DNA of 64,000 nt, from assembly GCA_964016885.1 (NCBI GenBank), contig OZ024742.1, positions 241,676,001 through 241,740,000 on the forward strand, given 5' to 3'. Source of the stretch: Eledone cirrhosa. Lineage: Eukaryota. Made by a program: the position numbers and the translations under genes. This document shows positions 7,128-59,358 of the stretch, in pieces; the first letter of the stretch is position 1; each line of letters starts with the position of its first letter. Under the pieces are notes generated by a model. It worked only from the letters and a program-made list of their open reading frames with translations, was not told where the DNA came from and searched no databases.

Positions 7128-7739
7128 TGTGTGTGTGTGTGTATGTGTGTGTGTGTGTGTGTGTGCGTGAATGTGTGTGTGTGTGTTAAGAAGTAATTGC
7201 TTATCTGTACGTATATATGTTTTTATTCAGAAAATTCTTAGATATGCGGAGGCTACGAAGTAGTGAAAATGAATGATGCAGGGGTACTGAGTACGTGTGT
7301 TGTACCGATAGAAGTACCATATGTAGGCCAGATGGTGGTCAAGGAGTAATGAGTTAGCTCTGCTTCAATTACCAACCGTAGTCACGCGTGAAATACAAAA
7401 TAAAGGGCGAAGGAGCTATAGCTTCGCGAAAGTTTGCATTCTACTTACTGAAATGGGGAGGATGGGCTTTACACACACGCTCGCACACGCTCGCACACGC
7501 TTGCACACACACACACACACGCACACACACTCATATATATGTATATATGTATATTTATTCACACATACATACGTGCATGAATACACACACGCACACACAC
7601 ACACACACGCGCGCACTTATATATATATATATATATTCACACATACATACGTACATAAATACACACACGCACGCACACACACACACGCGCGCGCACGCAC
7701 ACACACACACACATCACATATGTATGTATATATATATAT

Positions 7740-8033
7740 ATATTTCGTTTCTCAATTTGTTTAGCAAGATTCTTTATCTGAAATCGTGTGTTGAAACCGA
7801 TATTGTTATACTTTGGGAGGGTCATGTTGCCAATAAGAAACACACGCACCATTGCTTTCACTTCAATTTATTATAATAAATTTATAATAAATTTATAAAT
7901 TTATAAATTTCTGGTTGGTTGGTTGGTTCCACAATCAGATAGTTGTTTATATATAGTCATAGTTCTTTCGTCACACACTCTGTGACCTCTTCAGTGACTG
8001 GGGATTCCTTTCTTTGTTTCTGTGCCTCTCCTT
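7740..8033 (-). repeat. PLE 3' pseudo-LTR
   Basis: Near-identical to 11816-12100. Confidence 0.93.
7955..7999 (-). ncRNA. Minimal type I hammerhead ribozyme in pLTR
   Basis: Reverse strand AGTCA-CTGAAGA-G-GTCACA gagtg TGTGAC-GAAA-GAAC-TA-TGACT; stem I AGTCA/TGACT, very short stem III. Confidence 0.8.
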
Positions 8034-8199
8034 TGTTCTGTCCTACGCCATTTTGTTTCTGTGTGTGTGTTGTGTGCTCAGTCTGCGCATGCGCCACATC
8101 CGGGTGTCTGTGTGTGTTTATGTTCATTTATTTATTTGTTTATTTACATGTTACTGGTTGGTTGTTTGTTCTATGTGTGTGTCTGTTTTCATTTTGTTC

Positions 8200-11100
8200 T
8201 TAATTGTAAGTTGTGATGTTGCTGTTCCACTCATATTTTCTATTTAATTTTGGTTGTAATTCTTTTATGTTTATTGCCTCTGTAATTTGTCTAAACATTG
8301 CGTCTTTTCTGTGTGTAGATTCTATTTTTATTTCTATGTTCTCTAATTTACCCTTGTGTTCTATCTTAGCATGTTGGTATAGTACAGATGATTCTTTATT
8401 ATCTTGAAGGTCTCGCCAGTGTTCATTTATCCGTTCCCCTATACTACGAGCTGTCTCACCTATGTACACTATATTTTTGTTTCTACATTGTCCTTCAGTA
8501 CATCTTATGCTATACACTACATTTCTAGTTTTACAGTTAATATGGGGGCTTATTTTACAGGTTATACATTTCTTATCTATACATGAGGGTCTTTGAAAAG
8601 GGTATGTCTTGCTAATAAGTGTTTTTGCGGAGGTACCTGGTCTTTCTACTATCTTAATATTGAGTTTATGTTTATTTAGGGCCCTTCTAAATTTGTAAGC
8701 TAATTCACCTCTAGGGGTTGTATCGATGAACATTACACTCTGGTATTTATTGCTATCATACCATGAGTTTATTCTATTAGCCTTGTTCCTAGTTCTTTCT
8801 ATTCTATTCCAAAATTTGCTCCTATACAAGGGGCAGGTCCCGTTTATGTCATTATTTATCATTTTTTCCCATTTGGTTCTGGCTCCTCTATACACTCTGA
8901 TTTTATCTCTCTGATTGTAGCCAGAGAACTGCATACGGTGGATGAAGTGTTGTATGTGTCTCTCTAGTTCTTCGGGGTTGCACATGCGGGACACATTTCT
9001 CATCACTCGTACCAAATCCGCAATCAGTATGTTGATTTTGGTATGGTCCGAAACGGCCGAGTTTCGGTGGATCAGATGTTTGGAAAGTCATGGGTTTGGC
9101 ATAATGGGAATGGAGGATTTGTTTTTGGTTGTTAATGGTATCTAACCCGAGCTCTGTGTCTAGTACAGGTAATCGATGGTTGGGGTGTTTACTTGGGTAG
9201 TCTATAGTAACTCTAATGCTCTGGTGGATGGAGTTTGCTATTTGCTGGATGCTTTCCATTGTGTTTTTCTCTAGTTCCTGACTGTTCTCTAGTAGGGGTG
9301 TCTTAACTACGATGTTTATATCATCAAAGTAGCGGGAGTACATTATCAGGGTTAAGGGGTCTTCTAATTGTTCTTTAAGTTTAAGTTTAAGTCTACTGTC
9401 CCACCATACCATGAATAAGTTAGCTATGTCGCCTGCAATGCTGACACCAATGGCTGCTCCTTCCTCTTGGGCATATGTTTTTCCATTAAATTTGAACATA
9501 TGTTCCTTAAGGGTTAGTTTTATTCTGGCCCCTACCACATGTGCAATCATTTTCTTCAGTTCATCGTGGTTTTCAGGTGTCCGTATGGCTCTGGTCCACC
9601 CGTTCCATCTATCTGTGTGGGTTTTCTTGGCCATTGAGGTAATGGTAGGTGGTCTGCCTCTTGTTGGTCTTGTAGGGCACAAGTTGCTAAGGTCATATGT
9701 GTCTAGGTAATTATTACTATAGGTAAGCTTAAGTAGGAGTCCCAGCTCACTGGTATCAATCCCACGGACCTCAACCTTGCTCTCACTGATCATTTCTACG
9801 CATTTCTCCACAGCAAAATCCACGTCAATAGATGGATACAGGGACACAACATCCATACTGCCTATTATGCAGTTTGTTAGGTCCCTAGATCGGTTACTCA
9901 CGCCGATTCTGCTGAGGAGGTCCTCCGTGCTGTCACATACATCTGGGGACATTTCAGTGATGGGGCGTATGATCAGGGAGAGGAAGTAGGACAGTCTGTA
10001 GTTACTTGCAATGTTAGCTCCACAGACTGGCCGTGTTGGTGGTCCCGCGACAGGGTCACTGCCCGTTTTATGGTCTTTTCGAAGCCCATACAACGCCGGC
10101 ACGTCATTGTTCCAGGCCTGGAAGTTGTTGGCAGTCCTTTTGTTGGGATGCATTATATTCGTCCACATCACCATATGGGCATTGAGGGCTTTTTCTCTAT
10201 CCTCATGCTCCTGTGGTGTTACCTCTCTTGTGTTAGTGATGTGGGGTTGCATTGCCTGGATGTAGTTTGGCAGGCTGTCAACCGACATTCTGCCAGACTT
10301 GTCTGTTGGAAAGCATGCTATCTCTCCATTACGTGAGCGCTGCATGAACTTACGCAAGCCATTTGCAGATTTTTCTCCCAGTTGCTGGGCCTCCATTCTA
10401 TTATGCTTCTTGCTATACTGTTCTATAATATTTCTAAGTTCGGATCTAGCTATACTAAATTGTGCTTATGTTTGTTCATCGACCTGCGACGGCAATTGCG
10501 TGCGTTTGTTAAATGGTAAAGTCGTGGCGTGGACTCGTCGCAGGTCGAACGATTTATCGGAGGGATTATAAAACGCAGAGTTCCAGGCTGCTGCTTTATG
10601 TGTACTAGTGCTATTGTTATTGTTAGTTGTGTTGTTTCTATTTCTATTTCCACCAACAGCCTCATGGTTGTTTCTATGTCTCTCATAATTACTCCTGTCT
10701 CTTTCCACTGGCTCATTGTTGTTATCTACCCTATTTTGTGTGTCTGTGTGTTCGTCTTGGTTATTCTCTTTGTCCTTAGTCTCCCTTCTCTTTTTAATCC
10801 TATTACTTTCCCTTATTTCTGTGATTTCTCTGCTACTGTCATTACTTGTTTTCTGTGTCTGTGTGTTTGTTAAGATTGTGGTAGTGGTGAGACGCATTGA
10901 ATGTGTGTGTGTTGTTGTTGTTGATGTGTGCTGTTGTTGATGTGTGTTGTTGTTGTCTCCGTGTGTGTTATTGTTGTTGTGTGTGTTGTTATTGTTGTTT
11001 GTGTCTGCGTGTCTGTTGCTGTTGTTTCTGGGTATGTTGTTATTGTTGTTGTTGTTGGTGTGTGTGTTGTTGTTATTGTTGTTTGTGTCTGTGTGTCTGT

Positions 11101-11926
11101 TGTTGTTGGGATGTGTGTTGTATATGTGTGTGCGTATATTGTTGCTTTTGTTTTTGTTTTTGTTTTTGAGGCTCCAGCGTAGTTTTGTAAATGATTTTTC
11201 TATTTCTGACAGACACCTAATCATATTTACCTTCTTGAATGTCGCAAATTTCGGGGGTAAACACAACACAGATAACTCGTCATTATCTATTATTGTGTTA
11301 CCATATATATTTGTGTTGTTGTTGTTGTTGAACTCATCTGTTAATGAGGTGTCGGCCATATTTATACCGTCAATTTTGTCGGGATATCTATTGGTATTCT
11401 CTATAGTATCCTGATTTAGCTTTATCTGCTTAAGCCACTTTAGTTTCTTGTTAAAGTGCTTATCACATTCTTGAGTAATGTACTGTTCTTCAGGGCGTAT
11501 AAGGCTTATAAATATTAGTTTCTCTCTTGGTGTGGTGATCCTAGCTATTTCTTGTATTAGGTTACGCTTATGTTTTTCTTGATGACTTAATTCTCTATAG
11601 ATCTTCTTTTTTATGTTTAGAATTAATGTTCGTTTTAGCCTATCTGCTTGTTTTTTGGTGAGTTGTAATCTTCTAACGTCGGTGTTGATGGTGTTGGTGT
11701 AAACTCGGGACGAGGCACATTCTTTTATGAAGTGTAGTTGTCGAGATGTTATGGTTTTTCGTAGACAACAGAACATGGTGGTTTTCAGTATCTTGTTAGC
11801 CTGGCTAAGGCTTACGATATTTCGTTTCTGAATTTGTTTAGCAAGATTCTTTATCTGAAATCGTGTGTTGAAACCGATATTGTTATACTTTGGGAGGGTC
11901 ATGTTGCCAATAAGAAACACACGCAC
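8200..11926 (-). pseudogene. PLE polyprotein (N-terminal region + RT + GIY-YIG), one in-frame TAA at 10466-10468 and a frameshift near 9082
   Basis: ORF 10466..11926 is in frame with 8903..10396 across one TAA. RT motifs TDKSG, LYGLRKDHK, RPVC, SMDVVSLYPSID, GAAIG, RYFDD, LPVLD. EN motifs CKTRNVVYSIRC, YIGETARSIGERINEH, LNRKYEW in 8200..9015. Confidence 0.93.
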
Positions 11927-12100
11927 CAGTTGCTTTCACTTCAATTTATTATAATAAATTTATAAATTTATAAATTTCTGGTTGGTTGGTTGGTTCCACA
12001 ACCAGATAGTTGTTTATACATAGTCATAGTTCTTTCGTCACACACTCTGTGACCTCTTCAGTGACTGGGGATTCCTTTCTTTGTTTCTGTGCCTCTCCTT
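11816..12100 (-). repeat. PLE 5' pseudo-LTR (overlaps ORF start)
   Basis: Near-identical to 7740-8033. Confidence 0.93.
12022..12066 (-). ncRNA. Minimal type I hammerhead ribozyme in pLTR
   Basis: Identical to 7955-7999. Confidence 0.8.
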
Positions 12101-17000: not shown

Positions 17001-17667
17001 TATATTAGTAAACGGAATAGAAAATGCTGACAAATTGTTGACAGTTGAAAAATGGTTTAATTAGGAATAAAAGAGTATTAGTGATTGTATGAGTTAGTAT
17101 TCAGTTGTGGTTTTAAGTTTTTAAGTTTTTACCGGTTGCGCATTTCTAAATGCTTTTCAAAAATAATTTTGAGATAGAGTGTCCGTGTTGTTTGCTCTAA
17201 TCTGATTAGTTTTGGGAATTCTACCTGTTTTTATGTTAAAAAAGTGGCTCCAGCGCTATTTGATGTTTGCAAAAATTCTTTGCAAACACCAAATAGCGCT
17301 GGAGCCACTTTTTTAACATAAAAACAGTCTTGGCGCAAAATCAATTTTTTACATTCACATGACCTCTACCGACCAATCAAAATTGTTTTGACCACAAGAA
17401 TTTTTGCAACACCAAAGTAACGCTGGAGCCACTTTTTTAACATAAAAACAGGTAGAATTCCCAAAACTAATCAGATCAGAGCAAACAACACGGACACTCT
17501 ATCTCAAAATTATTTTTGAAAAGCATTTAGAAATGCGCAACCGGTAAAAACTTAAAAACTTAAAACCACAACTGAATACTAACCCATACAATCACTAATA
17601 CTCTTTTATTCCTAATTAAACCATTTTTCAACTGTCAACAATTTGTCAGCATTTTCTATTCCGTTTA

Positions 17668-19379: not shown

Positions 19380-19633
19380 ATATATATATATATATATATA
19401 TATGTCTAAAATCTTTTCCTGAGTCCAACCATTTTCGTTGCTGTGGTAATGCGGCTGGACTGCCGATCGATATATTTGATTTGCTAAGCTGTCTAAGCGT
19501 ATTGTTATTACTCTGGGATACTATTCCCATTCGAGTGCTAAAGCTACATACCGAATTTGCATTCTTTAGCTTGGCCGCAAACTAAAGGTTCGTTAATGCT
19601 GTACTAACATTTGTATATATATATATATATGAA

Positions 19634-19711
19634 TAAAGTTAGTCCTTCATGAGTGATCTTCCAACCATCATTGGTATTTCATCGCTTTAAAGACCATATA
19701 CCTCCGGTTGG
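19634..19711 (-). ncRNA. Permuted hammerhead-like motif, core mutated (CUCAUGA)
   Basis: Same motif as 59181-59258 with a G>C change in CUGAUGA. Confidence 0.65.
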
Positions 19712-20272
19712 TGCGAGCAACGGCTAAAAAAAGTGGTTGGGACACGTAAATAAAGGGGACACAAGAGTGTAAACAAATAAAGATGGTGAAGCAACGAAAA
19801 GTGAAGAAGAAGGAGTCAAGTCCCAAAATTTCCATGAATATAAGTTCGGTGAAATCGTGAACGATAGAGAATAAAAACCATCAAACCTGGCTGGAATGTG
19901 AGCAAGGAAGGAATTCCGTACAGGTCTAACGGGAGGAAGAAGGGATCTAGTCTGTGAATTCGGTGAACGTAAGTTCTGTGAAATCGTAGACGAGAGAGAG
20001 AAAAAAAGCGACCTGCCTGACCAAGGGTGCGAAAGAAAAGAATTACGCACAGGTCAAACGGGAAGAAGGAGGAGGAGGAGGAGAGGTAGTAACAGAGAGT
20101 GAGTGAGTGAAGGGTGAGGAAGCGGCTAACAGAGAGAGTGACTGTTAGAGAGGGTAAAGATACAGAGAAAGAGGAAGCAGTAAGAACGAAATAGACGGGT
20201 CACAGCGGGGGAAAAATATGTGTAAATATGAGAATAAACGTGCTGCGTGGTTGCTAATGGGTTACATATGAA

Positions 20273-20349
20273 TAAAGTTAGTCCTTCATCAGTGATCTTC
20301 CAACCATCATTGGTATTTCATCGCTTTAAAGACCATATACCTCCGGTTG
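20273..20349 (-). ncRNA. Permuted hammerhead-like motif, intact core
   Basis: Reverse strand CAACCG-GA-GGTAT-A-TGGTCTT-TAAAG-CGAT-GAA-ATACC-AAT-GA-TGGTTGG-AAGATCA-CTGATGA-AGGACTAA-CTTTA. Confidence 0.75.
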
Positions 20350-20356
20350 ATATATA

Positions 20357-20665
20357 TGGGTAATATGAAAAGATTCAGGCTCCTGACTGTTGAGCTCCCC
20401 CCGTTTCGACAGCACGATTCCAACTAACTGTCGAAACGGCTTTTTCTTATCGCATATATATTTATATATATATGTATAAATGAAAAGATTCAGGATCCCG
20501 ACAGCTGAGTTCTGGCCGTTTCGACAGTTAGTTGGAATCTAGCTGTCGAAACGGCGGGAGCTCAACAGTCAGGAGCCTGAATCTTTTCATATTACCCACT
20601 CTACTACCCCAAATATAGAGTACTCTGGTGGGTTATGGTCTAGCTGGTTTTTACCACACCCTATC
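20357..20665. mobile_element. 'Family B' fold-back inserts with hammerhead 3' half
   Basis: Palindromic CCGTTTCGACAG...CTGTCGAAACGG twice; tail ATTACCCACTCTACTACCCC...GAGTACTCTGGTG.GTTATGGTC shared with 21472, 41925, 42175, 43253 and 58666. Confidence 0.8.
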
Positions 20666-21410: not shown

Positions 21411-21471
<61 letters not shown>

Positions 21472-21473
<2 letters not shown>

Positions 21474-21612
21474 CTAAGAGGGTGTGGTGGACCATAATGC
21501 ACCAGAGTACTCGATACTTGGGGTTGTAGAGTGGGTAATATGAAAAGATTCAGGACCCCGACAGCTGTCGAAACAGCCGGAGCTCAGCTGTCGGGGTCCT
21601 GAATCTTTTCAT
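21472..21612. mobile_element. 'Family B' fold-back insert
   Basis: ATGAAAAGATTCAGGACCCCGACAGCTG...CAGCTGTCGGGGTCCTGAATCTTTTCAT palindrome; TA flanks. Confidence 0.8.
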
Positions 21613-21628
21613 TATATATATATATGAG

Positions 21629-30207: not shown

Positions 30208-32070
30208 ATGGCTGAAGCAAAGGCATCTACTTCCTTGTCAAAACAAGAAGATGGGAAGGGAAAGCCATGCCTACTTGACCAGCAGATAGGAGCAGGCATG
30301 GACAAAGGAATGCCAATATTATCGCCTCAACATTTAGAAGAGGAACAAGCTTCAGCTGCTTGTAAGCAACTGAATACGCCTGACGTCACAAACGTCACAT
30401 CTATCCACACACAGAAGGAAGTATGTGTAGCAAATACTAACACCACCACAAGCAACAACAACCACAATAAATGAGAACAACAACACAACAAAAAGAATCA
30501 GTGGCAACACAACGAATGAGACAATCATCACCACCAACAACAACTATAACAAAATTTCATTTGCGGCAACAGTTGCTAAGCAACAGGATTTTAAATACTA
30601 CTCCATTGACATTTCCCAAAAGTCCCAATATTTGGAAGAAGCTTCCAACTATGTGACGTTTGAGGGAGACACCCCACACATACCCCCACAAGTAAGAGAA
30701 ATGACAGAAAAAGAAGCTAATTTATAGAACAGTTGACATCCCTACAAAAAAAACCCATAACGCTCCCAACAAGCACTATCGAAGCTGCACTAAAAGACAT
30801 CAAGCCAGACGTGGCATACCTCCAAAGAGGTAAAAAGTATGGAAGTGTGTCAGTGCTCTTTAAGAGCGAAACTCTGGCAAAAAAACACTCGGTTCAACCA
30901 ATAAAAACGGATCAACACATTTTCTTCCCCACATACATGGGAAGCAGATCATACAAAATAAAAATAACCAGGATCCCAGCAGAGGTCAACATATGGTGGA
31001 TCCTACGCTGCATCCTGAAGAAGGATGAGGACACCCTCCTATCTGTAGACAGGACAGACCGGCATAACTGGTTTGGAACCTGCATCGAGGTTCTGGTACA
31101 AATGAGGCCAGAGAGAGTTGAGAAAATACCGGACAGGATCGTCCTTGAGGAAGATATCATCTCCATTTTAGTGGGGGTGGGGGGGAAGACCTCACTGCCA
31201 TAAGTGTGGGAAAACCACACGCTTAAAGGCCTTTTGCCCTCTCTTAAACAAACCGAGGACAAATAAGGTGTTATTACCAACACTAAAACCCCAACATCAA
31301 CACTCCAAACCAAACACAACACAAACACCTGCAACATCCACTCACACACCACCAGAGACAAACACACACACAAAATCCCACTGAAAAAACCTCCATTGCC
31401 TCCCCTCCCTATCAAATACGTCCACCTGCACAAACACTCCACCACACAACATACCCCTCCCATCTACCCCTGATTCAGAAGTCTCAGACACGGGAACCTC
31501 TACATCTCCAAGTGAGAATGAAGAGGAACCCCCAAAATCCCCAAAACAAAAAAGATACAAAAAAGACACAAAAACATCTATAGAAAACACGCACACACCC
31601 AACCCCACCATAAATACACCGCCACAAACGACAAACACACCAACAGCACAATCACCACCACCACAACCAAACACTTCACCAACAAAACAAACACCCACAC
31701 CACCACAATCACAAACCCCAACCACAAAAAGAAAACTACAAACAGAAACAGTACACAGAAAAAACAAAACACACTACACATACATAAAAACAAGAAACAA
31801 AGAACTGGTGGAAACTGTCCGAAAGGACCCCACAATACAAACGGAAGGGAAAACCTTCCCCACCAACGACCCACCCCCAAACCTCAAACTTATCAGGGTA
31901 ACAACCCTACAGTATGAAACTTTAAAAGAACTTCCCACATGATTTGGGCCCCCCTTGCCAAAAGCCCCTTATCCGTGTCCTGCTAAAAGGATTCCCTCCC
32001 TCCATCTCCAAACACCACCAATCTGGACATGGAGATCTAACAACCCGACCTCCAGGAAACGAAAACGTAA
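30208..32070 (+). pseudogene. LINE ORF1 remnant (RRM-like region, CCHC-knuckle relic, Thr/Pro-rich tail)
   Basis: ORFs 30208.. and 30733..31203; TGCCATAAGTGTGGGAAA = CHKCGK near 31196, matching CYLCGNRGH in the second copy. Confidence 0.65.
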
Positions 32071-32110
32071 GTGTTCCTGCCTTTTCTCTCCTTAACTCTT
32101 CTTCACCAAC

Positions 32111-35100
32111 ATGGCGACTTTACAAGCTGGATGTTTGAATGTACGTGGCCTGGGCATGTCCTGGAAACAGGGCCAGCTTTTAAATGATCTCAGGTCACAT
32201 TGTATAGATGTGATAGCCACCACTGAGTCCAGGATTCACGACAAGCAGCAGCTAACCCCCATATTCGATGATTTTGAGATCTACGCATCTCTGTTAGCCA
32301 AGAGGTGGAGGGGGAGTTGCTGTTCTGTTTCGAAAAAAACTTGGATCTCAAAATATAGACGATTCACTTGGACCCGGAGGGCAGCCTGGTGATCCTGGAC
32401 GTGAATGGTAGTGAAGGTGGAGCTTTCAGACTGGTGGCCGTATATGCCCCGACTGGGACATCGCGACCAGAGTTCTTCAAGCGTCTGAAGCCATTTCTGG
32501 GAACGTCTCGCTCCTTAATGTTAGCGGGGGACTGGAATGGCATCTTAGATGCTCGTTGGGACTATGTAGGAGCTTGTGATAATAGAGGGGGGTGTAAGAG
32601 CCTCAAAAATCTCACCAGCCAATTCCAACTGGCTGATAGATATCGACTAGACTTCCCAAGTGCACCACTGTGGACGTGGAGCAACCGCACTCGGTCTTCT
32701 AGATCGTATTTAGATATATTTTTAATTAGAGAGAATGATAAGGAAACATTAAACTGTCCACAAATGCACATGGTTGCCTATTCAGACCACAAATTAGTCA
32801 CCTGCGTAGTCAACCTTGATAGACAGGGACCCGGATACTGGAAGCTAAACATGTCGCTCCCGGCGCGTAAGGCCTACAGTAAACGGATTAGCACCTTAGT
32901 TAAGTGCCAGTTGACAGGGGCGATCGTCAACAACAGATGGTGGAGCTCTCTCAAGAGAGCAATTAGAATAGAATAGATAGCATTTAGCAAGGAAGTAGCT
33001 TTAGAAAAAAACAAAACTGAAAAGGAACTGGTAGCTAAAATAGAAGAGGCACTTAGGAATGGCAGTACAGCTGACGTGCTAGCGGCGATAACGGCACTAG
33101 ACTAGTTCTTCAACGTGAAACACGAAGGTTGTATTGTCAGAAGTAGAACACGTGCTCTAAGAAACGAGGGAGCCAAAGCTGTTAGCTGGGACCGAGTGGC
33201 AGAGGCGAAAAGTGGCAACAAATCCACAATTCGGTCTTTGCAAGACAAAGATGGAGGCATTATGCTTGAATCCAAGCAGATGTGCGCGGCCTTCCAGCAG
33301 CATTTTGCACAACTGTTCGGGCAAAGCGGTACATCGAGCGAGGTGATGGACTGCAGCTCCTACCTCGACGGCGTACCACGACTCTTGAGCACGGATGCGG
33401 AGAGCTGCGAAAGGCCGATCACAGCGGGCGAAATAGAAGATGCCCTAGGCCACTGCGGGAAACGCAAATCACCCGGTTTAGATGGTCTACCCTATGAGTT
33501 TTACATAGGCATGCAAGACTTGTTCTCTGGCGTCCTCGAAGCGGTCTACTGCATTGGCAGCAGAACGGGAGGATTCCCAGTTCTGTAGGCAGAGGCGTAG
33601 TAACGCTGATCAGGAAAGATGAGAACAAGGGGGGTGAGATAAGCAATTTCAGGCCCATAACTCTGCTCAACACAGAGTTAAAGATTTTGGCCAAGGTGTT
33701 AGCAGCAACACTGGCGCTTGTCGTCCAGAGCCTGGTAGGGAAGCCCAAACGTGTGTGCAATCCCGACCATACACGACAACCTACACCTCATGCGATACAT
33801 CAAAGAGAGGGTAGGGTGTAAACCTGGCTTTGGTGGGGCTCTGATCAATTTAGATCAGTCTAAGACATTTGATAGGGTCGACCATCAATACTTGGAAGCA
33901 GTTCTCAAGGCGGCCGGCTTCGGTCCCGTCTTCAGAGGCTGGATCGCTGCCATGCACACCAGCATCTGTTCGGCAGTCAAGGTGAATGGCTACCTATCAG
34001 AGCCATTCCAAATCATGCGTTCCATCCGTCAGGGATGCCCTCCCTCCATTCTGTATGTACTGACTCTCGAGCCGTTACTGCGGAAATTGGAGCTGTTGCA
34101 GGGCATCCCGATCGAACCAGGACTGCGGAGCGCAGCGTCAGCCTATGCCGACGACATAACTGTAATGGTGTCGAAAACCTCCGAAATCAGGGTAATCGGC
34201 AACCTATTACAGGAATACGAAACGTTGACAAGAACAAGACTAAACCCAAACAAGTCTGTCGATTTGCAACTCGGCACATGGAGAGGCAAACCCATGCCTT
34301 CCGACAGTGTGGTTGGACGCTGGACGGAAGGACCGGTGAAATTGCTCGGGGTCTGGTTCGGTCCAGACCTCCAGGTGGACAAGAACTGCAACGAAGTCAC
34401 GGCGAAGGGGTTTGCATTCACCAAGAAGTGGGCTTAGTGCAAACTCTCCTTGAAAGGTCGAGCGGAGGTGGCGAACACTTACATAGCGTCCGTCATCTAC
34501 TACCGCTTGACAGTCGTGCTTTTCCCCCGCGAATACCTTACCAAAATGGTACGCCTACTCTTCAAGTTCCTCTGGTAGAAACAGGTTCCATTGGTGAGGA
34601 GTTCCATCTGCTGTCAACACCCTTCTAACGGAGGGCTGGGTATGCCGTGGCTGATGATGCGCAAACACGCGCTGAGGCTCCGCCATCTCCAGGTATTCCT
34701 GACCGGTAAACCGGTGTGGCTGTCGTTTGTGAGACAAGCTCTTCTACAACTCGTCTCACTAACAGAGCTGCAGTCCTGGGACAAGTGAAGATCGAAAATG
34801 GGTGCCTGACACCTCGAGTACCTACAGGCGCTCACAGCCCTCTACCAAGCGGACACGGCAATCAGCGGCGACCCCACTTCGACATTCTATAGGGGATTAG
34901 TGGAGGATAAGTGCGACGATGTTCTCGGGAAAACTCTAGGCATCGAGGAGGACGAACTGACCAATATGTTCGGGAGGACTTCCGTCCAGGGCCTATGGAT
35001 AACTTCCAGAGGTCTCTGGCCTGGCAGTGCTACCGAGGAACTCTACCCGTTCGAGACAAAATCTACAGGCACGGACGCCTTGGCAGAGATCCTGCCAAGA

Positions 35101-35508
35101 TGCGAGCAGGACATCGAAACCGTTTTGCACGCAATTGTTCAGTGCCCAGGGGTGACCGACCTGTGGAATTATGTGGAACGGCTGCTGTTACGTGTGGGAT
35201 GTATCCAGTTGTCAGCCGAGTCCATCGTGAGGATCACCCCGCCGCCTTCATTTAAGAACGAAGGAGAGGCGGTTTTCCTCTGTCTGGTGCCTATGGCGAA
35301 AGAGGTAATATGGTGGACGAGGTTAAAAGGACTGAGGGCAAGCACCTTTCTCTCCGGACAACAACTTATCCCCTTCTTTAAGTATCACTTCAGAAGGAAG
35401 GTGAGAGTGGAGAGAGAGGTGCTACACCCCAGTAAATTTGCTGAAAAGTGGGTGAATGTGACAAAAATGGCCCGAGTGAATGGGCCTTCTCTGTATATAA
35501 ACCTGTAG
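32111..35508 (+). pseudogene. LINE ORF2 (APE + RT + Zn finger), multiple frameshifts/stops
   Basis: LNVRGL, VYAP, GDWN, SYLD, SDHK, YWKLN, KSPGLDGLPYEFY, LDQSKTFDRVDH, IRQGCP, YADD, KLLGVWF, HAIVQC. Confidence 0.93.
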
Positions 35509-35938
35509 GTTGAGGAAGATAAACAGAGGGAAGACAGGAACACCTACAAAACTTGTTCCTGGTGTTGAGGGTTGTTCTATCCACGGGGTGTAAAACAACT
35601 CAGCAGTAACGCCCCCCCCCCTCTGGGGATTTGAATTGTTATTTTATTATATATAGTTTATTGTTATTTATTAATGTTAAAGTTATTTTTATGTAAAACC
35701 CTCGCCGTCACGTCTTGTAATGTCATATTTTTCTACGCCCGTGTGGCAAATAAAGAAAGATATCTATCTATCTATCTATCTATTTATTTATTTATTTATC
35801 AATCTATCTATGTAAATAATCTCTCTATCTCTCTATCCACCTATCCATCCAACAATCTCTCTATCTATCTATATATCTATTAATAAAGTTCTGACACAAA
35901 TAAGGCCAGAACGCATCGCCCAAATCCCTGAGCGCGTC

Positions 35939-36652
35939 ATGCTGGATGACCGTACCCACCTCAACATTATTGTGGAGGGTACGCGTCCCTCCTGTTACCT
36001 CTGTGGCAATAGAGGTCACCTGAGGGCTGCCTGTCCGCAGCTCACACAGAAAAAAACACTGCTACCAACACCAACACCACCCCAACAACAACAAAAACAA
36101 CCACAACAACAACAACAACATAAACCAAAAACACCACCACCACCACCACCACCACAACAACAACAACAACAACAACAAACACGTGAAAAAACAACACAGA
36201 ATACTGTCCCACCCAACCCCTCCCCACTCAAAATAAATACAAAAACACACACACCGCAAACACTACGAGAAACATACCCCTCCCACCCAACAAGAAAGAC
36301 GAACCCCTTTCGTCGCAAGACGAAAAAGATCCCTTCCAAACAGTAAAAAGAAAGAAGAGGAGGCGCACCACATACACACTTGTTAACATTAACCCTCCCC
36401 AACAGAAAACAAACTATATACAAACCACCCCTCCCCGTCACACAACACTACCTGTTACGCAAAAAAAGACTTTACAATATACATACATGAACACAGACAA
36501 CAAAGAACTACTGAAAACAATTTCATCAAACCCTTCGGTCCAAACTGAAGGGCCTAACTTTATAACTGCTGTGGGACTACCTCATTTAAAAATGATTAAA
36601 GTCCCAATGAACTTTTATAAAACATTGAAAATAAATTTCACGGAGGACGTGC

Positions 36653-36683
<31 letters not shown>

Positions 36684-36888
36684 CCCACACCCCTGCGCCA
36701 AACCAATCAACCGCGTCCTCCTAAAAATGTTCACCCCTCCCCACCCAGACACCCACTCAACCACAAACGCCCCAACCCCACAACACACTGATGCCCCTTC
36801 ACTTCCACAAACCACCACCCCACCCAACAACCTATCCCCAACCAACATGGAAATTGAGCGGCCCGCTTCCCGGGACGCAGAGAGGTAA
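35939..36888 (+). pseudogene. LINE ORF1 C-terminal remnant with CCHC zinc knuckle
   Basis: CYLCGNRGHLRAAC; PCAKPINRVLLK matches PCQKPLIRVLLK in the first copy. Confidence 0.8.
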
Positions 36889-36912
36889 GTGCCTTTTCTC
36901 CTTACCACCAAC

Positions 36913-39900
36913 ATGGCTGCGCTAAGAGTAGGGTGTCTAAATGCGCGTGGCCTGTGCTCATCTTGGAAGCAAGCAATGCTTCTAAATGATCTCAGGTCAC
37001 GATCTATAAATGTGATGGTTATCTGCGAGACCCGGATCAGCAGCATGCGACAGCTAGCCCCCACCTTTGACGACTTTGAGATGCACGCATCTCTCTGTCA
37101 GCCCGGAGGTGGGGGTGGGGTTGTCGTTCTGCTGCAAAAACATCTGGGTCTTGCCACACAGATAGTTCACTTGGACCCAGGGGGTCGACTGGTGATGCTG
37201 GACCTTGGCAGTGGTGAAGGGGGAGCCTTTAGGCTGGTAGCCGCATATGCCCCTTTTGGGACAGAGCGGCCCGACTTTTTCCAGCGTCTGGAGTCTTTGC
37301 TTTTAGTGGGGGATTGGAATGGTATCCTAGATGCACGTTGGGACTATGCAGGGGCATGTCCCGATAGAGAGGGGCGCAACAGTCTCAAGGGGTTACTCGG
37401 CCGATTTGACCTGGCCGATAGATTTCGACTAGATTTTCCGACGGTGCCAACCTGGTCTTGGTCAAATCGCAGCGGATCATCTAGGTCGTACCTAGATAGG
37501 TTTTTAGTTAGAAATAAGGACAGGGACTTTTTAAGTTGTCCAGAAATGCTCATGGTTGGCTATTCAGACCACAAGTTGCTGACCTGCATGGTCAACCTTG
37601 ATAGAACGCATAGACAGGGCTCCGGTTACTGGAAGCTCAACTTGTCCTTGCCGGCAAGTAGAGCTTACAGGGATCGGATTAGTACGTTAATTAAGGAACG
37701 GTTGACTGGAGCGATCGTCAACAGCAGGTCGTGGGTATCTCTAAAGAGAGAGATTAGAGTAGTCTCGATAGAATTTAGTAAGGTTCTAGCTGCGGATAGG
37801 AATAGGAAGGAAAGGGAGCTAATAGATAGAGTAGAAGAGGCAATTAGAAGCGGCGACGTGGCCAGAGTGCTAGCGTCGAGAACGGCTTTGAGCCAGTTTT
37901 TCGACGCGAAGCACGAAGGCTGCGTTGTCCGAAGTAAAATACGTGCTCTATGGAACGAGGGGACCAAAGCTGTTAGCTGGGCCCGCGTGACAGAGGCCAA
38001 GAGTGGAACTAAATCCACCATCCGGTCTTTGCGAGACCAGGATGGACGGGCGATCCTTGAGCCTAAGCAGATGTGTGAGGCCTTTCAAAGGCACTTGCCC
38101 GACTGTTCGGAGGGGGCGGGGAGCCGGTTGGGGATGTGGACTTCGGTCCATACCTCGACGGCTTGCCGCGTCTCTCGGACAGGGAGGCGAAGTCCTGCGA
38201 GAAGCCGATTTCGGCCGCTGAGATAGAGGACGTGCTGAGCCAATGCGGCAAACGCAAATCCCCGGGTCTCGATGGTCTTCCATACGAATTATATCTAGCT
38301 ATGCCGGACTTGTTCCCCGATCTTCTCGAGGCGGTCTACTGCAACTGGCAACAGAACGGGAGAATTCCCTGTACTGTGACCAAGGGCGTAGTCACGCTAG
38401 TGAGGAAGGACGAGAACAAGGGAGACGAAATAAGTAACTTCAGGCCCATAACTCTGCTAAATACAGAGTTACAGATTTTAGCCAAGGTGCTAGCAAAGAG
38501 GTTGGCGCTTGTCGTGGGCAACCTGGTGGGAGATGCGCAGACATGTGCTATCCCGTCCAGGTCCATCCATGACAACCTCCACCTCATGCGATACATCATA
38601 GAGAGGGTTGGGAACGAACCCGGCTTTGGTGGGGCTCTGATCAACTTGGATCAATCTAAGGCGTTCGATAGGGTCGACCATGGTTACCTGGATGCGGTGC
38701 TAGCGGCGGCAGGCTTCGGACCCGTTTTCAGGGGCTGGATCACTGCTATGCACAGCAGCCGCATCTGCTCTAGGGTCAAGGTGAACGGCTACCTCTGGAG
38801 CCGTTCAAAATCGCGCGGTCCATCCGACAAGGGTGCCCTCTCTCCTCCCTTCTGTATGTGTTGACTCTCGAGCCACTACTGCGGAAGTTGGAGTTGTTGC
38901 AGGGCATCCCTTTGGAACCGGGATTGCGGAAAGCGGTGTCAGCCTACGCCGATCACGTGACAGTAATGGTGTCAACGGCCTCCGAAATCGGGGCGATCGG
39001 TACCTTACTGGAGGAGTACGAAAGGTTCACAGGGGCTAAGCTGAACCGGGACAAGTCGATCGGTTTGCAACTCGGCACGTGGAGGCGCAAACCGATGCCC
39101 TCCGATGGCGTCGTCGGACGCTGGACGGAGGGCCCGGTGAAGTTGCTCGGGGTCTGGTTCGGACCAGACCTCCAGGTGGAGAAGAACTGGGGTGAGGTTA
39201 CGAACAGGGTGTTTATACTGACCCAGAAGTGGGCCAGTTGCAAACTATCCCTGAAAGGTCGGGCGGAGGTGGCGAACACCTATATAGCGTCCGTCATCTA
39301 CTACCGCCTGACCGCCGTGCCTTGCCCAAGGGAAACCCTCGCCAAGATGGAGCGCGCGCTCTTCCAATTCCTTTGGAAGAGGCGGCTCCCTTGGTGAGGA
39401 GATCCATCTACTGTCAACACCCTTCGAAAGGAGGGCTGGGGATGCCGTGGCTAGTAATGCGTAAACACGCATTAAGGCTACGGCACCTCCACGTATTCCT
39501 CACCGGTCAACCGGGGTGGGCCTCGTTTGTGAGACGAACCTTCCCAGACTCGTCTCACTCACCGAGTTGCAATCCTGGGTCAAGTAAAGACCGAGAAAAC
39601 TGGGCGCCTGGCACACTCAGTGTGCTCAGGCGCTCACCGCCCTCTGGCAGGCGGATCCGGTTATCAGTGGACACTCCACCGCAACATTCTATAGAGGGCT
39701 GGTATACAACAGGTGCGACGATGCCCTCGGAGAAGCCCTAGACATGGAGGAAGACGATCTGGCCAGCCTGTTCGGTAGGACATTCAGCACGGGACCTATG
39801 GACAACTTCCAGAAGTCCCTGGCCTGGCAGTGCTACCGAGGGGCTCTACCCGTTCAAGAAAAGCTCTACAGACACGGGCGCCCGGGTAGGGACCCCGCCA

Positions 39901-40324
39901 AAAAGATCTGTCCCAGATGCGTGTGCGACGAGGAAACCGTTGCACACGCATTGGTACACTGCTCGGGCGTAGCCGATCTGTGGGGCTATGTCGAACAACT
40001 GCTGTCAAGGGTGGGACCGATCCGGTTGACCACCGAGTTTATTGTAATGATCAAGCCGCCTCCCCCCTTCAAAAATGAAGGAGAGGCGGTGTTTCTGTGC
40101 GTAATAGCCATGGTGAAAGAGGTTTATGGTGGACGCGTCTGAAAGGACTGAGGTCAGGCACCTTTCTCTCTGGCCAACAACTGGTCCGTTTCTTCCGATA
40201 TCATTTCGGAAGAAGGATCAGGATGGAGAGAGAGGTGCTCCACCCCAGTCGTTCTTATGAAAGATGGGTGAAAGTGGCGAGAATGGCCCGTGCAAATGGG
40301 CCTTCTCTTTACATCAGCCTGTAG
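36913..40324 (+). pseudogene. LINE ORF2 (APE + RT + Zn finger), frameshifted; catalytic YADD reads YADH
   Basis: ORFs 36889..38226, 38136..38864, 38858..39397, 39744..40142 and 40097..40324; motifs FRPITLLN, DQSKAFDRVDH, CPRC...HALVHC. Confidence 0.93.
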
Positions 40325-42071: not shown

Positions 42072-42172
42072 TAAAAATTAGCAAGAATCGAATTTCAGCC
42101 CATGAAATAACGAGAAAACACTTTCGAATATATATATATATACATGTATATATATACATATATATATATACA

Positions 42173-42434
<262 letters not shown>

Positions 42435-42618
42435 TCGGATTCATCGCGAAAGGTCTATTTCTTACTCGCTCATATATTCATCCAGATTATACTGATAGAA
42501 TAACTATGTAGCTTGTGTTTCTTCCTATCTTCGGTTAGCTTTCCCCTGTGTTGTTTACTTGTCTCACTCGCTTTACGCGTTTTAATTGTCCTAATAACTT
42601 ATTTTAGTTATTATTGCA

Positions 42619-42695
42619 CCAACGTGAGGTATATGATTTTTAATGCAATGAAATACCAATGACCGTTGGCAAATCGCTGATGAGGGACTCATTTT
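42619..42695 (+). ncRNA. Permuted hammerhead-like motif, subfamily 2
   Basis: CCAACGT-GA-GGTAT-A-TGATTT-TTAATG-CAAT-GAA-ATACC-AAT-GA-CCGTTGG-C-AAATCG-CTGATGA-GGGACT-CATT. Confidence 0.75.
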
Positions 42696-42892
42696 ATAAC
42701 ATGTTATCGATGTGCAACCATGCAGTATTCTTCTCCCCATATTTTTCACATATATATATATATATACATATATATAAACACACACATATATATATATATG
42801 TATAGAGGGGTAGACTTTGGGTGAGTGTGCAACTGAGTTGAATGTATATGAATGCACGTTCTTGTGATTTACTCAACTTATTTGCTTATATA

Positions 42893-43073
42893 TATTATTT
42901 GTTTCTACTTTAGGCACAAGGCCATCAATCACCCAGTACATTACTGGTACTTTATTTTATCGATCCCGTAAGGATGAAAGGTTAAGTTAACCTCGGCGGG
43001 ATTTGAACTCAGACCGCAAAGGGACGTAACTATGCTGGAAAGCATGGCGTCCGACCCTCTACCGATACTGCCA
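42893..43073 (-). mobile_element. tRNA-derived SINE (main family)
   Basis: Family consensus. Confidence 0.88.
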
Positions 43074-43177: not shown

Positions 43178-43252
<75 letters not shown>

Positions 43253-43254
<2 letters not shown>

Positions 43255-43437
43255 CGAGGGAAAAGTGGTAAGGAACCAGGTGGACCATAACGCACCAAAG
43301 TACTCAATACTTAGGGTAGTAGAGTGGGTAATAGGAGTAAGTAAGACCCCGACGGCTGAGCTCAAGCCGTTTCGACGGCTAATTCTTTAGCCGTCGAAAC
43401 GGCTTGAGCTCAGCCGTCGGGGTCTTACTTACTCCTA
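43253..43437. mobile_element. 'Family B' insert; 107-bp palindrome centred on hammerhead stem II
   Basis: GACGGCTAA ttc TTTAGCCGTC-GAAA-CGGCT tgagctc AGCCG-TC-GGGGTC; arms 43331-43437. Confidence 0.85.
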
Positions 43438-43461
43438 TATATATATATATATATACCTTTC

Positions 43462-49439: not shown

Positions 49440-49486
49440 TTATATATACATATACATACCTACATACATACATATATATATATATA

Positions 49487-49704
49487 TTCAGTTAGCTTTC
49501 CCCTGTGTTGTTTACTTGTCTCACTCGCTTTTCGCGTTTCAATTGTCCTAATAACTTATTTTAGTTATTGTCGCACCAACGTGAGGTATATGATTTTTAA
49601 TGCGATGAAATACCAAATAATCGTTGCACATGGATTATATGTTATAAAATGAGTCCCTCATCAGTGATTTGCCAACGATCATTGGTATTTCATCGCATTA
49701 AAAA
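49487..49704. mobile_element. Subfamily-2 permuted-ribozyme element, internally inverted
   Basis: 49487-49616(+) matches 42531-42659; 49620-49704 is the reverse complement of ~42635-42720. Confidence 0.8.
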
Positions 49705-49880
49705 TATAAAGAAATCATAATAGTATTTTTTATTAAATGTCAAATTTTTTATTAAATGTCAAAACTAATGTATGAAGGAAATTCCTTGAACTATTAGACA
49801 AACATTTTCCTCCTATTCATAGATTTTATAAGATTTTTAATAGGAATGTAGTTAAGATCAGCTACTCTTGTTGCCCATCC

Positions 49881-50399
49881 ATGAGGTCCAAAATCACCAG
49901 TTCAAACCGTACGAGGATAAATCCAGGATGCAGTTGCAGGAAGCCGGATGAATGCCCATTGCAGGGTAAATGTAACACAAAATCTGTCGTTTATGAAGCT
50001 AAGATAACGCCAGTTATCAACAACCAGCCAGCCAGAAGTGAGCGATATGTCGGTATGACCCAGGACAGGTTTAAAACCAGATTTTACTCACATGTCGCTT
50101 CTTTTAAACACTCAGATAAACGAACATCAACGGCCCTCGCAAGTAAGGTATGGGATCTCAAGGATAGTAATATCCCGTACTCTATTGATTGGTCTATATT
50201 AGACCATTCGAGGGAGTACCAAAGGGGCACAAAGAATTGTTCTTTGTGTACCACAGAAAAGTATAGGATTTTGCTAAACTTGAGAGCCACTTCCGCTTGC
50301 CTTAACTCAAAGACTGAGATCTTCAGATGCTGTCCTCATCTGAAATCGCATCTGATCTGTAACTGGATTGACACTCCTACGATAAATCAACCGCCTTGA
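49881..50399 (+). CDS. GIY-YIG endonuclease domain of a PLE (fragment)
   Basis: [22 protein letters not shown]...[16 protein letters not shown]...CSLCTTEK...LNSKTEI..CPH. Confidence 0.88.
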
Positions 50400-50899: not shown

Positions 50900-50959
50900 T
50901 TCATTCTGAAGATTGAAGGAAACCCTTTTTTTGCTTTTAAGAAACCTCTGGTGAATGGA
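50900..50959 (+). ncRNA. Type I hammerhead, cleavage triplet mutated (GUG)
   Basis: TTCATT-CTGAAGA-TTGAAGG...CTTTTAA-GAAA-CC tct GG-TG-AATGGA. Confidence 0.65.
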
Positions 50960-58665: not shown

Positions 58666-58803
58666 TAGGAGAAAGTATGACCCCGACGGCTTGAGCTCTG
58701 CCGTCGGGGTCATACTTTTTCCTATTTCCCACTCTACCACCCTAAGTATTGAGTACTCTGGTGCGTTATGGTCCATCTGGTTCCTTACCACAATTCCCTT
58801 GTT
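58666..58803. mobile_element. 'Family B' insert; palindrome centred on hammerhead stem III loop
   Basis: AAAGTATGACCCCGACGGC ttgagctct GCCGTCGGGGTCATACTTT; TA flanks. Confidence 0.85.
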
Positions 58804-58819
58804 ATATATATATATATAA

Positions 58820-58952: not shown

Positions 58953-59065
58953 TAGAACGTTCTAAGTAATTTATAAACACGCTTATTATAGTTTAGCAAT
59001 TCTATTGCAACTTCAGAAATAAGCGTGTTTATAATATACTTTGAACGTTTATAATATACTTTGAA

Positions 59066-59143
59066 TAAATTTAGTCCTTCATCAGTGATCTTCCAACCTT
59101 CATTGGTATTTCATCGCTTTAAAGACCATATACCTCCGGTTGG
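59066..59143 (-). ncRNA. Permuted hammerhead-like motif (mirror copy)
   Basis: Reverse complement of 59181-59258. Confidence 0.75.
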
Positions 59144-59180
59144 TGCGTGCACCAACCGGAGGTATATGGTCTTGCACGCA

Positions 59181-59258
59181 CCAACCGGAGGTATATGGTC
59201 TTTAAAGCGATGAAATACCAATGAAGGTTGGAAGATCACTGATGAAGGACTAAATTTA
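59181..59258 (+). ncRNA. Non-circularly permuted hammerhead-like motif with kink-turn
   Basis: CCAACCG-GA-GGTAT-A-TGGTCTT-TAAAG-CGAT-GAA-ATACC-AAT-GA-AGGTTGG-AAGATCA-CTGATGA-AGGACTAAATTTA. Confidence 0.78.
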
Positions 59259-59303
59259 TTCATATGTAACCCATTTGCAACCACACAGCACGCCATGTTT
59301 TCA

Positions 59304-59358
<55 letters not shown>

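Follow-up and report, generated by a model that had tools for sequence, protein, structure and literature searches.

The 64-kb window of the Eledone cirrhosa genome analyzed here (the whole stretch of 64,000 nucleotides, to which all coordinates refer) carries, on the + strand at 42619–42688, all the core nucleotides of a hammerhead ribozyme, arranged in the order site – GAAA – CUGAnGA. This block order (S-G-C) differs from any circular permutation of hammerhead types I–III, which raises the question of whether the motif is a working ribozyme and, if so, what kind of element carries it. The reading that we favor, with a probability of roughly 0.8 and on the basis of sequence comparison, is that it would be an active, cis-cleaving SGC hammerhead, folded as one pseudoknotted unit and located within a non-coding tandem repeat.

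Organization of the motif

Read as RNA, the segment 42619–42688 consists of CCAACG, UGA, GGUAU, A, UGAUUU, a 9-nt linker, U, GAAAUACC, AAU, GA, C, CGUUGG, C, AAAUCG, CUGAUGA, G and GGAC. The words singled out in the first-pass annotation of this DNA were located at 42626 (GAGGUAUAUG), 42648 (AUGAAAUACCAAUGA) and 42677 (CUGAUGAGGGACU). In hammerhead numbering, block S (a stem III strand, H17 and a stem I strand) corresponds to GGUAU-A-UGAUUU, block G to GAAAUACC and block C to AAAUCG-CUGAUGA, and the 5′-to-3′ order S, G, C is that of a type-SGC hammerhead. The core (C3 U4 G5 A6 N7 G8 A9 and G12 A13 A14) is complete, the A15.1-U16.1 pair is followed by H17 (not G), and stems I and III, which are 95.1% and 96.5% paired in the 51-copy alignment described below, abut the core. 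The individual parts are as follows.

42433–42760, + strand: subfamily B repeat, 5′-truncated and bounded by (TA)n runs on both sides; its 3′ end lies 117 nt past the predicted cut, and the full unit is ~533 bp
42619–42624, + strand: 5′ strand (CCAACG) of the NC helix of the predicted k-turn; partner at 42664–42669
42625–42627, + strand: non-bulged strand of the k-turn (3n, 2n, 1n = U, G, A); GA/GA in 151 of 164 clean copies
42628–42633, + strand: block S, stem III strand GGUAU (last letter = U16.1) and H17 (A); assigned from covariation, H17 composition and untemplated inserts
between 42633 and 42634, + strand: predicted cut site, with untemplated inserts at this bond
42634–42639, + strand: stem I strand UGAUUU; its partner (42671–42676) lies across the hairpin loop, which makes a pseudoknot; double changes in 5 of 6 pairs
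42640–42649, + strand: conserved linker UUAAUGCAA followed by position 11.1 (U); 3′ side of stem II, which is very short and has mostly non-canonical pairs
42650–42657, + strand: block G, G12 A13 A14 A15.1 and stem III strand AUACC; assigned from alignment and covariation
42658–42663, + strand: k-turn bulge AAU, then 1b G, 2b A and 3b C, following the standard k-turn definition given in PMC4382518
42664–42669, + strand: 3′ strand (CGUUGG) of the NC helix; covariation, tree-aware test
42671–42688, + strand: block C, stem I strand AAAUCG, core CUGAUGA (42677–42683), position 10.1 and the conserved GGAC; assigned from alignment and covariation

The triplet formed by 15.1-16.1 and H17 was AUA in 129 of 164 copies, AUC in 28, GUA in 5, and UUA and AUU in one copy each. 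H17 was A or C in 162 of the 164 copies and never G (the parsing pattern excluded G at position 17), and N7 was U, C or G; the hammerhead rules permit the letters observed at both positions.

A possible enclosing helix would join the sequence upstream of the motif (42604–42619) with 42715–42725, ~30 nt downstream; the candidate pairs are UUGCAC/GUGCAA in subfamily B and GUUGCU/AGCAAC at the matching places in subfamily A.

Copy number and covariation

The motif is repeated throughout the 3.0-Gb assembly. A search for the whole core at fixed spacing returned 13,478 copies, versus 0 for the control pattern, a pattern restricted to the 3′ half gave 14,091 exact matches, versus 3 for the reversed pattern, and a relaxed genome search gave 149 matches, versus 6 for its control. 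Most copies recovered with a pattern that made no demand on the S block had one upstream, with U16.1 and H17, and the loci recovered by the exact and relaxed searches fall into at least 10 subfamilies.

For the analysis of base pairing we used 51 copies from ~12 subfamilies, hand-picked from 144 distinct parsed sequences to span the subfamilies; near-duplicates, copies with insertions or truncations and an 81-nt subfamily were left out. These copies align over 83 columns with no gaps. Core letters were required for entry, and the invariance of the core in this alignment is therefore by construction, which does not affect the pattern counts obtained against reversed controls.

Covariation in stems I and III and in the k-turn helix exceeds that in slid, shuffled and tree-aware controls. 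The pseudoknotted structure is paired in 94.6% of 918 cells, with double changes in 15 of 18 pairs; none of 500 shuffles reached its score, and slid registers were 25–51% paired. Because the copies are related, a tree-aware count was also used, in which parsimony changes were placed on a tree built from the flanks and unpaired columns: 32 changes were common to the true partners, versus 16.2 ± 2.9 for permuted partners (maximum 27 in 20,000). Nested folding of the 42.6 kb copy, with a program that cannot score the pseudoknot, gave a stability close to that of shuffled sequences (z −0.19); stem III and the NC helix were present in the minimum-energy fold of all 5 main-family single copies tested.

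Subfamilies A and B

The window contains three B-type motif pieces and four A-type motifs. Besides the copy at 42.6 kb, these belong to the following elements.

49483–49705, both strands: B-type composite copy, in which a + strand 5′ part (49483–49626) is joined to an inverted 5′-truncated copy (49620–49705, − strand)
19624–20349, − strand: subfamily A element; motifs at 20343 and 19704, a spacing of 639 bp
59050–59316, both strands: inverted pair of subfamily A, with motifs at 59136 (−) and 59188 (+) and a 29-nt local duplication

The inverted copy at 49620–49705 has its 5′ end just 3′ of the cut site, and in the A copy at 19.6 kb the core G5 of CUGAUGA is changed to C.

The two subfamilies were compared using the best 30 genomic loci of each, taken from 40 and 41 listed matches. 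The commonest natural A copy is identical over 83 nt in 24 of the 30 loci and the commonest B copy in 18 of 30. These two sequences differ at 14 of 83 positions, of which five are in paired columns, and the pair is kept at all five; the paired-column changes amount to two double swaps and one G·U to A-U change (from A to B: C-G to G-C in the k-turn helix, and C-G to U-A plus G·U to A-U in stem I). Eight copy-specific changes fall in paired columns: four break the pair, four give pairs of the wobble type, and none is double. Since the subfamily states keep the pairs and the copy-specific changes do not compensate, the compensation is one between subfamilies.

The first-pass annotation had proposed that the RNA structure is under selection across two element lineages, and had named loss of the pairings in the consensus sequences as the finding that would speak against this. 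The commonest A and B copies keep every differing pair, and the proposal is supported beyond its original form, since stems I and III and the NC helix covary across at least 10 subfamilies. The change of the k-turn helix from CCAACC/GGUUGG to CCAACG/CGUUGG was rightly described as a C-G to G-C swap and is a subfamily state. For stem I the compensation stands, but the helix has 6 bp and not the 7 bp proposed (the seventh pair is lost in B), and AAAUCG, offered as a state of the subfamily, was found in only 2 of 30 B loci and is near-private, the subfamily B state being AAAUCA. The flanks, described as largely different, proved to be diverged homologues (~60–80% identity per aligned block, in units of 630 bp in A and 533 bp in B), and words considered invariant vary in other subfamilies, where the pairs are nonetheless kept. 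The readings of the motif as a permuted hammerhead and of its outer part as a k-turn hold at the sequence level.

Several other features were recorded in the window. An imperfect inverted repeat of ~240 bp (20357–20598) lies at the 5′ end of the A element, with related pieces at 21412–21625, 42148–42284, 43238–43453 and 58700–58818. Two broken LINE-like copies with endonuclease and reverse transcriptase (RT) frames occupy 30700–40140 on the + strand, a near-perfect 101-bp palindrome is located at 17226–17326 (microRNA model scores are below the cut-offs), and 42890–43073 is a high-copy repeat of ~180 bp, present in at least 12 other places, which we take to be SINE-like.

The predicted k-turn and the short stem II

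The segment separating stem III from the outer helix has the standard k-turn pattern (a 3-nt bulge, G·A, A·G and 3b·3n), and the k-turn is predicted to extend stem III and to link it to stem I. The 3-nt bulge with G·A and A·G between the C and NC helices was found in 151 of 164 clean copies; the pattern is absent in one old subfamily (10 copies examined). Among the 164 copies, the 3b·3n position is U·G in 58, U·U in 51, C·U in 36, A·A in 7 and A·G in 7. By these counts 101 of the 164 copies have 3n = G or 3b = C, states linked to ion-induced k-turn folding in the text of PMC4382518.

Stem II is much reduced. Of the 51 copies, 43 (84.3%) have the Watson-Crick pair 10.1-11.1, for which the tree gives a single shared change, and the positions beyond it are non-canonical (A·G, R·G, C·A). 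The helix is nearly absent in the young subfamilies, and 3–4 pairs are possible in only two old ones; 10 copies of one old subfamily have 2–4 of 4 pairs. The two old subfamilies with 3–4 stem II pairs (L277 and L272–L279, the 81-nt subfamily; L257, L280–L282 and L063) also have C-G at 15.2-16.2, and the 81-nt subfamily has a 3×4 internal loop where the k-turn stands elsewhere.

In a comparison by eye, most copies depart from the published SGC descriptor (CGAAA, CUGAUGAG or CUGAUGAUG, and at least two further stem II pairs) in having UGAAA or AGAAA. Because stem II is short, descriptors that require CGAAA and a longer stem II would miss the motif. Among the hits that the Rfam scans listed (150 of 224 in one scan) there was no model of a hammerhead or of any other ribozyme.

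Traces at the predicted cleavage site

Genome copies with exact flanks and at least 2 extra bases between U16.1 and the linker (S segment, n = 48) were classed by script, as were insertions between stem III and CUGA (control segment, n = 29). The S-segment insertions comprised 25 duplications, 12 short untemplated inserts at the scissile bond and 11 others, namely 5 long imperfect duplications or TA expansions, 1 inverted copy, 3 poorly fitting matches (probably not element copies) and 2 short inserts elsewhere, one of which is a duplication by eye and was left out of the test. Tandem duplications made up 26 of the 29 control insertions; of the other three, one was an inverted copy, one an imperfect duplication and one a copy with a poor fit. 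No control insertion was of the bond type. The position of 12 of 13 short inserts at the predicted bond has a p value of 1.5e-7 (chance 2 in 9); the difference between the S segment and the control has a p value of 0.0026, which rises to 0.067 when two doubtful inserts in the control are included.

The 12 untemplated inserts are 2–8 nt long, and their 58 letters are 46 A, 7 G, 3 C and 2 T (79% A), an A-richness confined to the RNA strand. Both young and older subfamilies have such inserts, and four of the 12 follow C17; their placement is unique for three and ambiguous by one base for the rest. A search anchored further upstream (24 matches, inspected by eye) revealed no untemplated insert 5′ of the bond, and contigs from three sequencing runs of one sample, compared with the tandem unit, contained many subfamily variants and no insert at the bond. 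Three of the 12 copies with bond inserts (L189, L193 and L194) have their 5′ end within ~15 nt upstream of the insert site, as if copying had stopped soon past a rejoined bond.

The 5′ ends of copies were counted by patterns, because (TA)n runs blurred the BLAST-based histogram. On the reverse strand, with each locus counted once (forward counts are inflated by overlapping starts), 401 ends joined to (TA)n lie just 3′ of the bond, versus 94 in a window of the same width upstream; TA microhomology in the segment may explain part of this excess. Only 9 copies end at the bond, which argues that linear cleaved monomers are not the usual template, and most tandem junctions are scar-free.

The A-rich inserts probably mark RNAs that had been cleaved, tailed and rejoined before they were reverse transcribed. 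Since the helices change in matched pairs and A-rich extra letters are found at the predicted cut site, self-cutting of the RNA in living cells is likely.

The repeat unit and its coding neighbours

The unit is non-coding, 496–645 bp long, often tandem and located in (TA)n; its long frames are of low complexity, and an inverted 5′-truncated copy often adjoins it. These are dispersed tandem repeats with one hammerhead per unit, as in non-LTR retrozymes, but the S-G-C order is not that of the type I hammerhead of this class. Copies read on the ribozyme strand share a fixed 3′ end, which in 25 of the 30 entries examined lies 66–131 nt beyond the bond (a sample not chosen by its ends, in which three overlapping locus pairs are counted twice), and the 5′ ends are scattered, which makes this strand the likely template, internally primed. 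Internal priming and AT-rich targets are described for a Penelope-like enzyme in PMC11167929.

The first-pass annotation had predicted, as the partner of the repeat, an autonomous Penelope-like element (PLE) with the motif in its pLTR. No such element was found among the coding families and neighbouring loci that were read, and the two coding families with readable ends have type I cores. In every locus read, the unit is parted from coding fragments by (TA)n or a truncation junction, and no RT plus GIY-YIG frame continuous with a motif-bearing pLTR was seen. Such separation of motif copies and coding fragments, two further fragment types included, is expected for shared targets. In the youngest coding family the motif was present in 0 of 29 other loci (30 of 150 matches examined). 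A rare autonomous carrier may exist elsewhere in the genome.

The window also contains a near full-length PLE, Neptune-like by eye, at 7718–12100 (− strand). A stop and a frameshift interrupt its RT and C-terminal GIY-YIG frames, each of its direct terminal repeats has a type I core (12061 and 7994), and its 3′ end runs into (TA)n. A relative of the Neptune-like window element likewise has a type I core in its pLTR. An endonuclease fragment of a very young Penelope-like family lies at 49706–50396 (+), where it adjoins the 49.6 kb copy, and positions 50906 and 52811 are grouped with it. Copies of this family are 96–99% identical, with open frames of up to ~714 codons; their 3′ region is long and rich in microsatellites, and they have a type I core whose stem II is long and U-rich. 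The one Pfam match, to RVT_1, was weak. The names Neptune-like, Hydra-like and Poseidon-like are presumptive, the motifs having been read by eye, in part against the text of PMC8557442.

At least three further (TA)n-associated repeat families have type I hammerhead-like cores (loci L025, L079, L093, L108, L201 and L270; L023, L069, L262, L285 and L372; L011, L075, L105 and L114). One of them has CUGAUGAAGGACUA in common with subfamily A of the permuted motif, but its flanks have no homology beyond adjacency, and the match is no more than a lead on the origin of the motif.

Alternative explanations

Units are often tandem, the hammerheads of PLEs are thought to cut as dimers (according to the text of PMC4209133 and PMC6765202), and covariation cannot separate pairing within a unit from pairing between units. 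Cleavage only as a domain-swapped dimer, in which block G of one unit would combine with S and C of the next to give G-S-C (type II) while a single unit was inactive, is nevertheless unlikely: stem III has its full 5 bp, closes a 20-nt loop locally and appears with the NC helix in the folds of the five single copies, whereas in the dimer it would span ~530 nt with a second G block looped out; moreover, a circular monomer has only one block set. Quite unlikely, too, is the full structure of the first-pass annotation, in which a distal stem II changes in compensation from UAAAG/CUUUA to AAUG/CAUU. Each pairing can be drawn in its own subfamily, and in 45 of 47 main-family copies G11.5 lies opposite a C or U; the two registers, however, are 2 nt apart, which makes the change a register shift, and neither covaries or is paired above shuffles (70.6% and 46.1% versus 68.8% and 50.4%). 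The tree gives one shared change over 5 pairs, and UAA stays constant while its supposed partner changes freely.

It could also be argued that the motif is hammerhead-derived and no longer cuts, being conserved as a signal for packaging or for protein binding (a k-turn recognised by an L7Ae-family protein or by the reverse transcriptase), with a cellular nuclease or DNA repair at TA steps as the source of the inserts. The near absence of stem II in young subfamilies, U·U at 3b·3n in 51 of the 164 copies, and the report in PMC11167929 of one PLE that inserted in vitro with no need of ribozyme cleavage would agree with this. We consider it very unlikely, since the inserts are located at the one bond predicted by hammerhead chemistry, also after C17, their A-richness is confined to the RNA strand in young and older subfamilies, and most copies retain an S block that the search pattern did not require. 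Membership of another RNA class has a negligible probability. UAAUGC resembles a twister start, and twister rows in the supplement of PMC10085705 begin with it, but no strand covaries with UAAWGC, the twister elements that should follow are missing, and the scars mark the hammerhead bond, which precedes the U-A step by 8 nt. As for a box C/D snoRNA relic, two C/D models gave weak hits (E 0.31 and 0.84), with 19–20 bits against cut-offs of 65–85 and no match at the curated Rfam score.

Proposed mechanism and significance

In the favored reading, that of a cis-cleaving SGC hammerhead, the S-G-C core would fold as one pseudoknotted unit, with the k-turn bending the extended stem III back to stem I and with stem II probably formed by one Watson-Crick pair and non-canonical pairs. 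The ribozyme would cut the repeat RNA in cells, the cut 3′ end may be tailed, and the ends would probably be rejoined, either by ligation into a circle or by a jump of the reverse transcriptase across the cut. The RNA would then be copied into (TA)n DNA by a reverse transcriptase from elsewhere, presumably a Penelope-like one.

We regard as somewhat probable the broader view that this is the first genome-encoded eukaryotic hammerhead with a non-circular permutation, that it has an independent, k-turn-braced architecture with stem II almost absent, possibly gated by a host k-turn-binding protein, and that it drives a retrozyme-like family through >10 subfamilies and >13,000 copies, the genomic copies recording cleavage, tailing and rejoining at single-nucleotide resolution. 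As a second permuted hammerhead, built differently and located in an animal genome, the motif would show that this topology is biologically workable, and its thousands of natural variants would give a rich covariation set. The k-turn would offer a structural answer to how the end of stem III reaches the stem I–II region, a question left open in the text of PMC10085705, and the untemplated inserts would be rare genomic evidence on in vivo cutting by retroelement hammerheads, which is open for PLEs. Since such ribozymes would be invisible to type I–III descriptors, other ‘ribozyme-less’ Penelope-like lineages may hide permuted hammerheads. Naiads are described as lacking canonical hammerheads in PMC8557442.

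Comparison with known systems

The non-circular permutation was named type SGC by Eckert et al. 2023, who showed cleavage in vitro; the rearranged-hammerhead data in the text of that paper come from assembled metatranscriptomes only (PMC10085705). In the literature covered, which was mostly without subscription papers, we found no report of a type-SGC hammerhead outside Eckert 2023, none joining a hammerhead and a k-turn with a retrotransposon or helix III, and none of untemplated inserts at a hammerhead cleavage site; titles and abstracts on kink-turns, octopus and cephalopods gave nothing relevant. The words octopus, k-turn and kink are absent from the main text of Eckert et al., and these together with Eukaryota, Metazoa and Mollusca are absent from the supplement text (PMC10085705), just as ‘hammerhead’ is absent from the text of the k-turn review PMC4316175. 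Viral contigs gave 42 matches to the 3′ half, none with an upstream S block by eye, and metagenome contigs gave 65 matches, none with all helices. Two related metagenome matches with stems I and III paired were taken for chance matches; as read, both lie antisense to a protein-coding gene.

The likeness to HRIMA-1 and its variants, the type-SGC hammerheads described in PMC10085705, lies in the S-G-C order, the intact core, the short stem I–II linker and the pseudoknotted stems. HRIMA-1 types, however, come from metatranscriptomes and likely from virus-like circular RNAs, whereas the Eledone motif belongs to an animal genomic repeat. HRIMA-1 has a multi-pair stem II, in contrast to approximately one Watson-Crick pair (3–4 in two old subfamilies) and a 9-nt linker here, and a further helix that joins stems I and II at their far sides (PMC10085705) and is not seen in the Eledone motif. 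In the latter, the G-to-C linker pairs instead with sequence upstream of block S through the predicted k-turn helix. In its C helix ending in C-G pairs, 3-nt bulge, G·A and A·G pairs, 3b·3n position and NC helix, this k-turn resembles the standard Kt-7, SAM-I, box C/D and U4 k-turns as presented in PMC4382518 and PMC4316175, but unlike them it is built onto stem III of a hammerhead.

With PLEs, as described in PMC4209133, PMC8557442 and PMC11167929, the repeat shares microsatellite or AT-rich targets, partial tandems, an inverted 5′-truncated copy and a defined 3′ end downstream of the ribozyme; unlike them, it has no RT or endonuclease frame of its own, and the coding families read here have type I cores. 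The repeat fits the life cycle of non-LTR retrozymes set out by Cervera and de la Pena 2020 (PMC7229834), and an origin of retrozymes from pLTRs has been proposed on type I descriptors only (bioRxiv 10.64898/2026.07.22.740005). Like metazoan non-LTR retrozymes as these two sources present them, the Eledone repeat forms non-coding tandems with one hammerhead per unit, dispersed in thousands, for which Penelope-like mobilisation is proposed. Retrozymes have type I hammerheads, units of 170–400 nt and demonstrated circular RNA (PMC7229834), whereas the Eledone repeat is of type SGC and has units of 496–645 bp. The motif would work like the hammerhead in a retrozyme: it has the block order that defines type SGC, though not the HRIMA-1 form, and the repeat that carries it is not a type I retrozyme.
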